A stretch of 38,449 bases of DNA, from the sequence record LR745706; one strand, 5' to 3'. Positions 33,501 through 38,449 of the stretch are shown piece by piece. The position numbers and the translations under genes were made by a program. The notes beneath the pieces are model-generated. The model saw only the letters and a program-made list of their open reading frames with translations, was not told where the DNA came from and made no database searches. The stretch's first letter is position 1; every line of letters begins with the position of its first letter. The DNA comes from Escherichia phage T7.

Positions 33501-34552
33501 TAGGGACCTTGAAGTATTCAACACAGGAACTGGCTGCTCGCTCTCCGTGGACTAAGCTACTGAACGGAACCACTAACTACCTTCTGGATGCTGCGCGTCA
33601 AGGTATGCTTGGGGATGTTATTAGTGCCACCCTAACAGGTAAGACTACCCGCTGGGAGAAAGAAGGCTTCCTTCGTGGTGCCTCCGTAACTCCTGAGCAG
33701 ATGGCTGGCATCAAGTCTCTCATCAAGGAACATATGGTACGCGGTGAGGACGGGAAGTTTACCGTTAAGGACAAGCAAGCGTTCTCTATGGACCCACGGG
33801 CTATGGACTTATGGAGACTGGCTGACAAGGTAGCTGATGAGGCAATGCTGCGTCCACATAAGGTGTCCTTACAGGATTCCCATGCGTTCGGAGCACTAGG
33901 TAAGATGGTTATGCAGTTTAAGTCTTTCACTATCAAGTCCCTTAACTCTAAGTTCCTGCGAACCTTCTATGATGGATACAAGAACAACCGAGCGATTGAC
34001 GCTGCGCTGAGCATCATCACCTCTATGGGTCTCGCTGGTGGTTTCTATGCTATGGCTGCACACGTCAAAGCATACGCTCTGCCTAAGGAGAAACGTAAGG
34101 AGTACTTGGAGCGTGCACTGGACCCAACCATGATTGCCCACGCTGCGTTATCTCGTAGTTCTCAATTGGGTGCTCCTTTGGCTATGGTTGACCTAGTTGG
34201 TGGTGTTTTAGGGTTCGAGTCCTCCAAGATGGCTCGCTCTACGATTCTACCTAAGGACACCGTGAAGGAACGTGACCCAAACAAACCGTACACCTCTAGA
34301 GAGGTAATGGGCGCTATGGGTTCAAACCTTCTGGAACAGATGCCTTCGGCTGGCTTTGTGGCTAACGTAGGGGCTACCTTAATGAATGCTGCTGGCGTGG
34401 TCAACTCACCTAATAAAGCAACCGAGCAGGACTTCATGACTGGTCTTATGAACTCCACAAAAGAGTTAGTACCGAACGACCCATTGACTCAACAGCTTGT
34501 GTTGAAGATTTATGAGGCGAACGGTGTTAACTTGAGGGAGCGTAGGAAATAA
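30596..34552 (+). CDS. 16: Internal virion protein D (gp16) with N-terminal lytic transglycosylase domain
   Basis: ORF track 1318 aa; N-terminal SLT-like motifs (TESRFVPTAKSKTGPLGMMQF...AYNQGEG). Confidence 0.97.
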   Translation: MDKYDKNVPSDYDGLFQKAADANGVSYDLLRKVAWTESRFVPTAKSKTGPLGMMQFTKATAKALGLRVTDGPDDDRLNPELAINAAAKQLAGLVGKFDGDELKAALAYNQGEGRLGNPQLEAYSKGDFASISEEGRNYMRNLLDVAKSPMAGQLETFGGITPKGKGIPAEVGLAGIGHKQKVTQELPESTSFDVKGIEQEATAKPFAKDFWETHGETLDEYNSRSTFFGFKNAAEAELSNSVAGMAFRAGRLDNGFDVFKDTITPTRWNSHIWTPEELEKIRTEVKNPAYINVVTGGSPENLDDLIKLANENFENDSRAAEAGLGAKLSAGIIGAGVDPLSYVPMVGVTGKGFKLINKALVVGAESAALNVASEGLRTSVAGGDADYAGAALGGFVFGAGMSAISDAVAAGLKRSKPEAEFDNEFIGPMMRLEARETARNANSADLSRMNTENMKFEGEHNGVPYEDLPTERGAVVLHDGSVLSASNPINPKTLKEFSEVDPEKAARGIKLAGFTEIGLKTLGSDDADIRRVAIDLVRSPTGMQSGASGKFGATASDIHERLHGTDQRTYNDLYKAMSDAMKDPEFSTGGAKMSREETRYTIYRRAALAIERPELQKALTPSERIVMDIIKRHFDTKRELMENPAIFGNTKAVSIFPESRHKGTYVPHVYDRHAKALMIQRYGAEGLQEGIARSWMNSYVSRPEVKARVDEMLKELHGVKEVTPEMVEKYAMDKAYGISHSDQFTNSSIIEENIEGLVGIENNSFLEARNLFDSDLSITMPDGQQFSVNDLRDFDMFRIMPAYDRRVNGDIAIMGSTGKTTKELKDEILALKAKAEGDGKKTGEVHALMDTVKILTGRARRNQDTVWETSLRAINDLGFFAKNAYMGAQNITEIAGMIVTGNVRALGHGIPILRDTLYKSKPVSAKELKELHASLFGKEVDQLIRPKRADIVQRLREATDTGPAVANIVGTLKYSTQELAARSPWTKLLNGTTNYLLDAARQGMLGDVISATLTGKTTRWEKEGFLRGASVTPEQMAGIKSLIKEHMVRGEDGKFTVKDKQAFSMDPRAMDLWRLADKVADEAMLRPHKVSLQDSHAFGALGKMVMQFKSFTIKSLNSKFLRTFYDGYKNNRAIDAALSIITSMGLAGGFYAMAAHVKAYALPKEKRKEYLERALDPTMIAHAALSRSSQLGAPLAMVDLVGGVLGFESSKMARSTILPKDTVKERDPNKPYTSREVMGAMGSNLLEQMPSAGFVANVGATLMNAAGVVNSPNKATEQDFMTGLMNSTKELVPNDPLTQQLVLKIYEANGVNLRERRK

Positions 34553-34572
34553 TACGACTCACTATAGGGAGA
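34550..34572 (+). promoter_or_regulatory. T7 promoter phi17 (class III), here driving trxA
   Basis: taatacgactcactatagggaga followed by the native gene 17 leader gaggcgaaataatcttctccctgtagtctcttagatttactttaaggaggtcaaATG. Confidence 0.92.
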
Positions 34573-34624
34573 GGCGAAATAATCTTCTCCCTGTAGTCTC
34601 TTAGATTTACTTTAAGGAGGTCAA

Positions 34625-34954
34625 ATGAGCGATAAAATCATTCACCTGACCGATGACTCTTTTGATACCGACGTGCTGAAAGCTGATGGTGCAATTCTGG
34701 TTGATTTCTGGGCAGAGTGGTGCGGCCCTTGCAAAATGATCGCTCCAATCCTGGACGAAATTGCGGACGAATATCAGGGTAAGCTGACTGTGGCCAAACT
34801 GAACATTGACCAGAACCCTGGCACCGCACCGAAATACGGTATCCGTGGCATCCCAACTCTGCTGCTGTTCAAAAACGGTGAAGTGGCAGCAACCAAAGTA
34901 GGCGCTCTGTCTAAAGGCCAACTGAAAGAGTTCCTGGACGCCAACCTGGCTTAA
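34625..34954 (+). CDS. trxA: Thioredoxin 1 (E. coli TrxA protein), at the position normally occupied by tail-fibre gene 17
   Basis: ORF track 109 aa, [109 protein letters not shown], which I recognise as E. coli thioredoxin with the WCGPC active site. It uses the gene 17 promoter and ribosome-binding site. No gp17-like ORF exists anywhere in the window. Confidence 0.97.
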
Positions 34955-35015
34955 TGATTGGTAAATCACAAGGAAAGACGTGTAGTCCACGGATGGACTC
35001 TCAAGGAGGTACAAG

Positions 35016-35219
35016 GTGCTATCATTAGACTTTAACAACGAATTGATTAAGGCTGCTCCAATTGTTGGGACGGGTGTAGCAGATGTTAGTGCTCGACTGT
35101 TCTTTGGGTTAAGCCTTAACGAATGGTTCTACGTTGCTGCTATCGCCTACACAGTGGTTCAGATTGGTGCCAAGGTAGTCGATAAGATGATTGACTGGAA
35201 GAAAGCCAATAAGGAGTGA
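35016..35219 (+). CDS. 17.5: Holin (gp17.5)
   Basis: ORF track 67 aa with a GTG start; MLSLDFNNELIKAAPIVGTGVADVSARLFFGLSLNEWFYVAAIAYTVVQIGAK, one hydrophobic segment. Confidence 0.9.
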   Translation: MLSLDFNNELIKAAPIVGTGVADVSARLFFGLSLNEWFYVAAIAYTVVQIGAKVVDKMIDWKKANKE

Positions 35220-35224
35220 TATGT

Positions 35225-35494
35225 ATGGAAAAGGATAAGAGCCTTATTACATTCTTAGAGATGTTGGACACTGCGATGGCTCAGCGTATGCTTGCGGACC
35301 TTTCGGACCATGAGCGTCGCTCTCCGCAACTCTATAATGCTATTAACAAACTGTTAGACCGCCACAAGTTCCAGATTGGTAAGTTGCAGCCGGATGTTCA
35401 CATCTTAGGTGGCCTTGCTGGTGCTCTTGAAGAGTACAAAGAGAAAGTCGGTGATAACGGTCTTACGGATGATGATATTTACACATTACAGTGA
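35225..35494 (+). CDS. 18: Terminase small subunit (gp18)
   Basis: MEKDKSLITFLEMLDTAMAQRM... in-frame ATG inside ORF 35216..35494; 89 aa. Confidence 0.88.
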   Translation: MEKDKSLITFLEMLDTAMAQRMLADLSDHERRSPQLYNAINKLLDRHKFQIGKLQPDVHILGGLAGALEEYKEKVGDNGLTDDDIYTLQ

Positions 35495-35495
35495 T

Positions 35496-35545
35496 ATACT
35501 CAAGGCCACTACAGATAGTGGTCTTTATGGATGTCATTGTCTATA
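35496..35545 (+). promoter_or_regulatory. RNase III processing hairpin R18.5
   Basis: atactcaaggccactacagatagtggtctttatggatg motif. Confidence 0.6.
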
Positions 35546-35588
35546 CGAGATGCTCCTACGTGAAATCTGAAAGTTAACGGGAGGCATT

Positions 35589-36020
35589 ATGCTAGAATTT
35601 TTACGTAAGCTAATCCCTTGGGTTCTCGCTGGGATGCTATTCGGGTTAGGATGGCATCTAGGGTCAGACTCAATGGACGCTAAATGGAAACAGGAGGTAC
35701 ACAATGAGTACGTTAAGAGAGTTGAGGCTGCGAAGAGCACTCAAAGAGCAATCGATGCGGTATCTGCTAAGTATCAAGAAGACCTTGCCGCGCTGGAAGG
35801 GAGCACTGATAGGATTATTTCTGATTTGCGTAGCGACAATAAGCGGTTGCGCGTCAGAGTCAAAACTACCGGAACCTCCGATGGTCAGTGTGGATTCGAG
35901 CCTGATGGTCGAGCCGAACTTGACGACCGAGATGCTAAACGTATTCTCGCAGTGACCCAGAAGGGTGACGCATGGATTCGTGCGTTACAGGATACTATTC
36001 GTGAACTGCAACGTAAGTAG
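35589..36020 (+). CDS. 18.5: i-spanin (Rz-like, gp18.5)
   Basis: ORF track 143 aa; N-terminal transmembrane segment then a charged coiled-coil-like region. Confidence 0.9.
   Translation: MLEFLRKLIPWVLAGMLFGLGWHLGSDSMDAKWKQEVHNEYVKRVEAAKSTQRAIDAVSAKYQEDLAALEGSTDRIISDLRSDNKRLRVRVKTTGTSDGQCGFEPDGRAELDDRDAKRILAVTQKGDAWIRALQDTIRELQRK
35704..35955 (+). CDS. 18.7: o-spanin (Rz1-like lipoprotein, gp18.7), embedded in gene 18.5 in another frame
   Basis: ORF track 83 aa with the lipobox-like LICVATISGCAS; fully nested within 18.5. Confidence 0.8.
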   Translation: MSTLRELRLRRALKEQSMRYLLSIKKTLPRWKGALIGLFLICVATISGCASESKLPEPPMVSVDSSLMVEPNLTTEMLNVFSQ

Positions 36021-36041
36021 GAAATCAAGTAAGGAGGCAAT

Positions 36042-37802
36042 GTGTCTACTCAATCCAATCGTAATGCGCTCGTAGTGGCGCAACTGAAAGGAGACTTCGT
36101 GGCGTTCCTATTCGTCTTATGGAAGGCGCTAAACCTACCGGTGCCCACTAAGTGTCAGATTGACATGGCTAAGGTGCTGGCGAATGGAGACAACAAGAAG
36201 TTCATCTTACAGGCTTTCCGTGGTATCGGTAAGTCGTTCATCACATGTGCGTTCGTTGTGTGGTCCTTATGGAGAGACCCTCAGTTGAAGATACTTATCG
36301 TATCAGCCTCTAAGGAGCGTGCAGACGCTAACTCCATCTTTATTAAGAACATCATTGACCTGCTGCCATTCCTATCTGAGTTAAAGCCAAGACCCGGACA
36401 GCGTGACTCGGTAATCAGCTTTGATGTAGGCCCAGCCAATCCTGACCACTCTCCTAGTGTGAAATCAGTAGGTATCACTGGTCAGTTAACTGGTAGCCGT
36501 GCTGACATTATCATTGCGGATGACGTTGAGATTCCGTCTAACAGCGCAACTATGGGTGCCCGTGAGAAGCTATGGACTCTGGTTCAGGAGTTCGCTGCGT
36601 TACTTAAACCGCTGCCTTCCTCTCGCGTTATCTACCTTGGTACACCTCAGACAGAGATGACTCTCTATAAGGAACTTGAGGATAACCGTGGGTACACAAC
36701 CATTATCTGGCCTGCTCTGTACCCAAGGACACGTGAAGAGAACCTCTATTACTCACAGCGTCTTGCTCCTATGTTACGCGCTGAGTACGATGAGAACCCT
36801 GAGGCACTTGCTGGGACTCCAACAGACCCAGTGCGCTTTGACCGTGATGACCTGCGCGAGCGTGAGTTGGAATACGGTAAGGCTGGCTTTACGCTACAGT
36901 TCATGCTTAACCCTAACCTTAGTGATGCCGAGAAGTACCCGCTGAGGCTTCGTGACGCTATCGTAGCGGCCTTAGACTTAGAGAAGGCCCCAATGCATTA
37001 CCAGTGGCTTCCGAACCGTCAGAACATCATTGAGGACCTTCCTAACGTTGGCCTTAAGGGTGATGACCTGCATACGTACCACGATTGTTCCAACAACTCA
37101 GGTCAGTACCAACAGAAGATTCTGGTCATTGACCCTAGTGGTCGCGGTAAGGACGAAACAGGTTACGCTGTGCTGTACACACTGAACGGTTACATCTACC
37201 TTATGGAAGCTGGAGGTTTCCGTGATGGCTACTCCGATAAGACCCTTGAGTTACTCGCTAAGAAGGCAAAGCAATGGGGAGTCCAGACGGTTGTCTACGA
37301 GAGTAACTTCGGTGACGGTATGTTCGGTAAGGTATTCAGTCCTATCCTTCTTAAACACCACAACTGTGCGATGGAAGAGATTCGTGCCCGTGGTATGAAA
37401 GAGATGCGTATTTGCGATACCCTTGAGCCAGTCATGCAGACTCACCGCCTTGTAATTCGTGATGAGGTCATTAGGGCCGACTACCAGTCCGCTCGTGACG
37501 TAGACGGTAAGCATGACGTTAAGTACTCGTTGTTCTACCAGATGACCCGTATCACTCGTGAGAAAGGCGCTCTGGCTCATGATGACCGATTGGATGCCCT
37601 TGCGTTAGGCATTGAGTATCTCCGTGAGTCCATGCAGTTGGATTCCGTTAAGGTCGAGGGTGAAGTACTTGCTGACTTCCTTGAGGAACACATGATGCGT
37701 CCTACGGTTGCTGCTACGCATATCATTGAGATGTCTGTGGGAGGAGTTGATGTGTACTCTGAGGACGATGAGGGTTACGGTACGTCTTTCATTGAGTGGT
37801 GA
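36042..37802 (+). CDS. 19: Terminase large subunit (gp19)
   Basis: ORF track 586 aa. Confidence 0.97.
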
Positions 37803-37883
37803 TTTATGCATTAGGACTGCATAGGGATGCACTATAGACCACGGATGGTCAGTTCTTTAAGTTACTGAAAAGACACGATAAAT

Positions 37884-37906
37884 TAATACGACTCACTATA
37901 GGGAGA
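37884..37906 (+). promoter_or_regulatory. T7 promoter phiOR
   Basis: attaatacgactcactatagggagag. Confidence 0.9.
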
Positions 37907-38060
37907 GGAGGGACGAAAGGTTACTATATAGATACTGAATGAATACTTATAGAGTGCATAAAGTATGCATAATGGTGTACCTAGAGTGACCTCTAAGAAT
38001 GGTGATTATATTGTATTAGTATCACCTTAACTTAAGGACCAACATAAAGGGAGGAGACTC

Positions 38061-38210
38061 ATGTTCCGCTTATTGTTGAACCTACTGCGGCATAGAGTCA
38101 CCTACCGATTTCTTGTGGTACTTTGTGCTGCCCTTGGGTACGCATCTCTTACTGGAGACCTCAGTTCACTGGAGTCTGTCGTTTGCTCTATACTCACTTG
38201 TAGCGATTAG
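38061..38210 (+). CDS. 19.5: gp19.5 small hydrophobic protein
   Basis: ATG after GGGAGGAG; 49 codons (MFRLLLNLLRHRVTYRFLVVLCAALGYASL...). Confidence 0.65.
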   Translation: MFRLLLNLLRHRVTYRFLVVLCAALGYASLTGDLSSLESVVCSILTCSD

Positions 38211-38269
38211 GGTCTTCCTGACCGACTGATGGCTCACCGAGGGATTCAGCGGTATGATTGCATCACACC

Positions 38270-38449
38270 ACTTCATCCCTATAGAGTCAAGTCCTAAGGT
38301 ATACCCATAAAGAGCCTCTAATGGTCTATCCTAAGGTCTATACCTAAAGATAGGCCATCCTATCAGTGTCACCTAAAGAGGGTCTTAGAGAGGGCCTATG
38401 GAGTTCCTATAGGGTCCTTTAAAATATACCATAAAAATCTGAGTGACTA
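38270..38449 (+). repeat. Right-end short repeat region (CCTAAAG / CCTAAGG / CCTATAG units) before the right terminal repeat
   Basis: tcctaaggtatacccataaagagcc...tatcctaaggtctatacctaaagataggcc...tcacctaaagagg; the window ends where the right terminal repeat would start. Confidence 0.7.

Follow-up and report, generated by a model that had tools for sequence, protein, structure and literature searches.

A synonymously recoded trxA in place of gene 17 in an engineered T7 genome

The sequence record LR745706 (Escherichia phage T7, 38,449 nucleotides, referred to as the window at its full length) carries an open reading frame for thioredoxin in the slot of the tail-fibre gene, and the nucleotide sequence of this trxA is not that of Escherichia coli K-12. 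The initial annotation, made from the letters alone, offered two sources for such an allele, a synthetic gene or the trxA of a close relative, and these raise the further question of why the codons differ. The evidence collected below leaves little doubt that the window is an engineered T7, phAG_7 or an isogenic construct, in which the gene 17 ORF was swapped for a chemically synthesised and recoded trxA, with the recoding probably as a by-product of the design.

Exact replacement of gene 17

BLAST of the whole window against the T7 reference NC_001604 gave two collinear blocks, with window positions 1-34627 corresponding to T7 1-34626 and positions 34957-38449 corresponding to T7 36285-39777. 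T7 34627-36284 had no counterpart in the window; thus, the gene 17 CDS is absent and the genome is otherwise a complete T7. According to the annotation of NC_001604, the slot occupied by trxA is filled in wild-type T7 by tail-fibre gene 17, the ORF of which spans T7 34624-36285. Comparison of the junctions with NC_001604 indicated that the swap is exact, start codon for start codon, and that the last codons of the insert, GCT TAA TGA, are followed by T7 36286 (TTGG...). The sum of the lengths also closes: 39937 of the reference, minus 160 for the right terminal repeat, plus 1 for an extra A, minus 1662 for gene 17, plus 333 for the insert, gives 38449.

The cassette end TAATGA is a double stop typical of synthetic design. 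It was joined directly to T7 36286 (TTGGTAAATC) in the window and in the deposited genomes LR745707 and LR745709, compared with GAGTAATTGG in wild-type T7, and the junction TAATGATTGG was common to the same three sequences. The features of the locus are listed in Table 1, together with the homology arms HR1 and HR2 of a published DNA fragment discussed below. HR1 is itself T7 sequence, and therefore the crossover point within this arm is invisible. The phi17 promoter is a perfect match to the T7 promoter and lies 52 nt upstream of the trxA ORF; the gene would be transcribed from phi17 and translated from the ribosome-binding site of gene 17, as judged from this arrangement. When the cassette was scanned for a sigma-70-like promoter or an intrinsic terminator brought in with it, neither was found. 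On the minus strand, a 143-aa ORF with a TTG start (34607-35038) runs antisense across the entire trxA insert; the frame is almost certainly open by chance.

Table 1 Features of the trxA locus in the window
Feature	Position	Strand	Evidence
Upstream neighbour, unmodified T7 gene 16 (internal virion protein D)	30596..34552	+	ORF list; collinearity with NC_001604 extends to reference position 34626
HR1, left homology arm of the published g-block	34525..34624	+	Alignment of the g-block of Fig. S7 (PMC7077284) starts at 34525; bases identical to NC_001604
T7 class III promoter phi17 TAATACGACTCACTATAGGGAGA, now expected to drive trxA	34550..34572	+	Exact match; phi17 at 34566 of NC_001604, which the +1 shift places at window 34567
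Native gene 17 ribosome-binding site AAGGAGGT, presumably reused for trxA	34614..34621	+	Direct read; identical to the T7 reference through the ATG
Synonymously recoded, synthetic trxA ORF, ATG to TAA, 109 aa; positive-selection marker	34625..34954	+	ORF list; comparison with K-12; LR745707-9; g-block
Second stop TGA; last insert-specific triplet before T7 36286	34955..34957	+	Junction comparison with NC_001604
HR2, right homology arm of the g-block, T7 36286 onward	34958..35048	+	HR2/g-block text; alignment ends at 35048; collinear with NC_001604 36285-39777
T7 gene 17.5 (holin), unmodified downstream context	35016..35219	+	ORF list; annotation of NC_001604 and LR745707

Codon pattern of the insert and the purpose of the recoding

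The trxA of MG1655 (b3781, NC_000913.3 3965761-3966090) was used as the K-12 reference. The translation of the window trxA was identical to MG1655 TrxA (NP_418228) at 109 of 109 residues, including the WCGPC redox motif of the active site at residues 32-36, whereas the DNA differed at 49 of 330 positions (85.2% identity). These differences were located at the third codon position in 46 cases, at the first in two, and at the second in one; they affected 48 of the 110 codons and changed no amino acid. The initial annotation had stated both that the protein is exactly that of E. coli and that the gene departs from K-12 at many third positions, and it was right on both counts. Even the two strings that it had set side by side, ATC ATT CAC CTG ACC GAT GAC TCT for the window and ATT ATT CAC CTG ACT GAC GAC AGT for K-12, were exact in the window and in MG1655, respectively.

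The synonymous changes include AGT to TCT at Ser12 and TTG to CTG at Leu100. The switch between the two serine codon boxes needs a non-synonymous intermediate, and accordingly goes beyond natural synonymous drift. Of random single-base changes, roughly one in four is synonymous; 49 changes without a single replacement would be expected with a probability of about 0.25^49, and chance cannot account for them.

The figures derived from the weights for the codon adaptation index (CAI; Sharp & Li 1987) and from the codon frequencies (Kazusa table) are approximate. On this basis the CAI rises from 0.563 in the native gene to 0.654 in the window, and the GC content is unchanged (50.9% vs 50.3%). Nine native codons have a weight below 0.1, and eight of them (AGT, ACG, three CTC, GGG, GTC, and TTG) were replaced by good codons; all 13 leucine codons are now CTG. 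The remaining pattern is one of exchange. Aspartate usage is kept at five GAT and six GAC though six of the 11 codons were flipped, the glutamine codons CAA and CAG exchange positions, and GGT and GGC, ATT and ATC, and GAT and GAC replace each other in both directions. Of the four CCG codons, one was kept and the others became CCA or CCT. Altogether, the codon weight went up in 27 of the 48 changes and down in 21. A frequency-weighted random back-translation is expected to change 54-59 codons (standard deviation about 4.5-4.7) compared with the 48 of 105 degenerate codons changed here, and the probability of 48 or fewer is about 0.01-0.12 depending on the codon-frequency cut-off.

Two simple designs were also considered. 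A design with one best codon for each amino acid was rejected: the window agrees with it at 59 of 105 degenerate codons and the native gene at 58, and although such a design would change 47 codons, it would do so in a different pattern. Removal of cloning sites was not supported as a reason either, as the native gene is free of EcoRI, XbaI, SpeI, PstI, NotI, BsaI, BbsI, BsmBI, and SapI sites; the only site lost by the recoding is one RsrII/AvaII site in the CGPC region. The codon pattern fits the output that a gene-design program would give when sampling a high-expression codon table, rather than a maximal-divergence or a best-codon design. A program of this kind would have dropped the poorest codons and re-dealt the other synonymous codons with overall usage kept.

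The reduced identity to the chromosomal copy had also been proposed to limit homologous recombination with the host. As a physical effect this is reasonable, since the longest perfect runs shared with K-12 trxA are 32, 23, and 14 nt, but as the purpose of the recoding the proposal did not gain support. The minimal segment for RecBCD-dependent recombination is reportedly roughly 23-27 bp, a figure said to go back to work of Shen and Huang in 1986. Deliberate recoding to minimise homology to the chromosomal trxA, so that marker and host could not recombine, would explain why the identity is broken into runs near or below this length. It would also account for the many quality-neutral two-way swaps and for the 21 changes that lower the codon weight, which pure optimisation would not introduce. 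However, a design for maximal divergence would alter nearly all of the degenerate codons rather than fewer than half of them, the number of changes is at or slightly below the mean of random back-translation, and the 32-nt run was left intact. Furthermore, the host used for selection and recombination in the published work, BW25113 delta-trxA732::kan, has no trxA ORF to recombine with (PMC7077284). The same paper states no such purpose: its main text contains neither the word 'codon' nor the words 'recombination with', it gives no reason or method for the choice of the trxA codons, and the sole item described as 'codon optimised' is the g17 helper plasmid pAG_31 (PMC7077284). Taken together, these findings make a deliberate reduction of homology unlikely. 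A homology-breaking design that, in addition, measurably stabilises the marker on trxA+ hosts, without gene conversion or abortive recombination between phage and chromosome, is slightly less likely still; if this were true, phage engineering would gain in such recoding a useful general rule for markers taken from host genes. We infer instead that the recoding was a by-product of design software and not a measure against recombination.

Distance of the allele from natural trxA genes

The allele was searched by sensitive blastn against 5,426 complete E. coli genomes, 72,556 records of a plasmid collection, which includes mislabelled enterobacterial chromosomes, and 50,697 phage records. All 5,426 E. 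coli genomes contained trxA, and every copy was 80-90% identical to the window allele, the closest reaching 86.1%; full identity to a native trxA of E. coli, which would have spoken for a plain native insert, was thus absent from these genomes. The best matches in the plasmid collection were from Enterobacter (85.8%), E. coli (85.8%), Salmonella (84.5%), Citrobacter (84.1%, with 97% of the query covered), and Klebsiella (82.1%). Over the full ORF, the identity was 84.2-84.5% for Salmonella, 85.2-85.8% for Enterobacter, 82.1% for Klebsiella, and 83.3% for Citrobacter. Only three records in the phage collection matched at more than 85%, namely LR745707, LR745708, and LR745709, each at 100% (330/330). 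Apart from these three engineered T7 records, nothing above 86.1% was found in the E. coli, plasmid, and phage collections, and a 60-nt piece of the allele had no exact match in a viral contig collection. A protein-guided scan of species-representative genomes returned, among the matches listed, mostly distant relatives and added two close alleles.

A natural trxA from a close relative of E. coli (Escherichia, Salmonella, or Citrobacter) with an identical TrxA would also explain an unchanged protein, and identity of the protein alone indeed does not point to E. coli, because Salmonella Infantis and Citrobacter sp. TSA-1 encode the same 109-aa TrxA. Their alleles, however, are 84.2% and 83.3% identical to the window allele, respectively, yet 91-93% identical to that of E. 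coli. In a pairwise matrix of eight natural alleles from six genera, the alleles were 85-99% identical to one another, with values of 90-93% between E. coli and the other genera. The window allele, in contrast, was 82-86% identical to all natural alleles, including that of Buttiauxella, and hence equally distant from every lineage. Moreover, it carried 25 private bases that none of the eight natural alleles shares, compared with 0-11 per natural allele. This pattern of distances and private bases is the signature of in-silico back-translation and not of descent, a conclusion that needs no support from the literature. Together with the match to a published synthetic g-block, these results exclude, for all collections searched, the second source named in the initial annotation, and a natural origin of the allele is highly improbable.

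Sequencing or assembly artefacts, or passage mutations, in an originally native insert can be set aside as more improbable still: nothing speaks for them, although T7 engineered with native trxA does exist (PMC7697293), and against them 49 all-synonymous changes are not obtainable by error or by neutral drift in a few passages, only two positions in the rest of the 38-kb window depart from the T7 reference, and unaltered copies of the 330 nt are present in three genomes that were assembled independently, as well as in the published design.

Provenance, selection scheme, and relation to other trxA-marked T7 phages

Grigonyte et al. 2020 (Viruses 12:193; PMC7077284; project PRJEB35760) described the Warwick T7 engineering series. 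The 'HR1-trxA-HR2 g-block' given in their Fig. S7 aligned with window positions 34525-35048 with no mismatch and four single-base dropouts, three of which lie inside TTT, CCC, and AAA runs, as expected for text machine-read from a PDF. The supplement also lists 'trxA g-block' primers (PMC7077284). The match of the allele to this g-block, base for base, and its 100% identity in LR745707-9 confirm the first of the two sources named at the outset, a synthetic gene. The annotation of LR745707-9 describes T7 with chimaeric tail fibres, in which trxA comes after a fusion of T7 gp17 1-466 with either BPP-1 Mtd or Yep-phi gp17.

Outside the insert, positions 1-2500 and 23900-24400 of the window agreed in every base with LR745708 and LR745709, and these stretches include two differences from NC_001604; from trxA to the end, the window was identical to LR745707 and LR745709. 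Of this series, the phage collection contained just the three sister genomes and no record of the window itself. Based on the shared variants and the description of the design, the window is very probably phAG_7 or an isogenic construct derived from the same stock and the same assembly pipeline.

Of the two differences from NC_001604, one is an extra A at window position 1897 (CAAGGAACAAGAG vs CAAGGACAAGAG) in the gene 0.6B region, which shifts the downstream frame so that the ORF at 1781-1999 reads through to ...LANTLNAIS followed by a stop. Being present in LR745708 and LR745709 as well, it is a difference of the stock or of the reference and not a product of engineering. The other, C to T at 24158, replaces the final CAA (Gln) codon of capsid protein 10B, the frameshift product, with TAA and makes 10B one residue shorter; the site lies just upstream of the Tphi terminator, and the change is common to LR745708 and LR745709. 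At the end of the window (38449, T7 39777), the 160-bp right terminal repeat is missing, whereas the left copy occupies positions 1-160. The final base is the same in LR745707 and LR745709, and the missing repeat is also common to LR745708. This is probably a collapse of the direct terminal repeat in short-read assembly and not a real deletion.

The leader before trxA in LR745707 (3449-3500 of the extracted stretch) is the reused gene 17 leader GATTTACTTTAAGGAGGTCAA, and that in LR745709 (3395-3500 of the extracted stretch) is ATTAAGGAGGTAACCC. Both are unlike what we take to be the sequence of the BioBrick ribosome-binding site B0034. Table S2 lists B0034 for plasmids of the LR745707 and LR745709 type (PMC7077284). 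In the same table, pAG_29, the phAG_7 plasmid for the replacement of g17, is worded in the same way as the mtd-fusion plasmids (PMC7077284). No mtd sequence was present in the window, which indicates that one of the two tables of the paper is imprecise. Searches of literature full texts found no mention of the accession LR745707 or of an 18-nt string of the allele, and neither the recoded nor the native 5' end of trxA was found in the supplements of the related Warwick paper PMC8234382.

The phage was very probably made as follows. The gene was designed in silico and synthesised rather than amplified from the chromosome, which led to the synonymous recoding. It was then delivered as the HR1-trxA-HR2 g-block with T7 homology arms of about 100 bp and recombined into T7, and E. 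coli BW25113 delta-trxA providing gp17 in trans served to select the recombinants.

Host thioredoxin is the processivity factor that T7 DNA polymerase gp5 requires, and consequently growth on a trxA-deleted host is restricted to phages with a trxA of their own. On such a host, the plating of T7 drops roughly 10^10-fold (PMC7077284). Since replacement of gene 17 removes the tail fibres, plaques were raised on cells in which pAG_30 or pAG_31 provides gp17 (PMC7077284). Dependence on gp17 in trans and growth on a trxA-deleted host were reported both for phAG_7 (PMC7077284) and for T7 g17<>trxA (PMC7697293).

The recoded trxA is therefore real, was rightly read as synthetic, and was already documented in the literature of 2020. 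The recoding shows that the genome was built in the laboratory and is not that of a natural phage with a captured host gene, and the exact allele links it to a single published engineering series, that of Warwick in 2020. Phage-genome mining for 'auxiliary host genes' should leave out this sequence. There is no new biology in the insert, as the thioredoxin dependence of T7 and the use of trxA as a marker are long established.

Compared with native K-12 trxA, the source of the Trx tag, the window gene thus encodes the same protein with different codons, and it also differs in its setting: the native gene is situated in the rhlB-trxA-rho region, whereas the window gene lies behind a phage late promoter. 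With phAG_7 and its g-block it shares the trxA nucleotides, the TAATGA end, the downstream junction, the backbone variants, and the collapsed terminal repeat. The sister genomes LR745707-9 keep a chimaeric gene 17 upstream of trxA, with a separate ribosome-binding site for the latter; the window, unlike them, has no gene 17, and its trxA sits directly on the promoter, leader, and start position of gene 17.

Replacement of T7 genes 0.4, 11, 12, and 17 by native trxA is a published method of the Qimron laboratory (cited in PMC7077284), and Jensen et al. 2020 constructed T7 g17<>trxA with trxA amplified from the chromosome, using a primer that carries the native 5' sequence ATGAGCGATAAAATTATTCACCTGACTGAC (PMC7697293). 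These constructs follow the same principle at the same locus, in that gene 17 is exchanged for trxA, selection relies on a trxA-deleted host, and gp17 is given in trans. The phage of Jensen et al. was nevertheless rejected as the source of the window, because its primers are of native sequence and its right junction retains part of gene 17 (PMC7697293). The difference can be read directly from the two ends of the gene: primers ARP356 and ARP357 contain the native ...AAAATTATTCACCTGACTGAC and, for the 3' end, the native TTACGCCAGGTTAGCGTCGAGGA, respectively, whereas the window has the recoded ...AAAATCATTCACCTGACCGAT and ...CTGGACGCCAACCTGGCTTAATGA.
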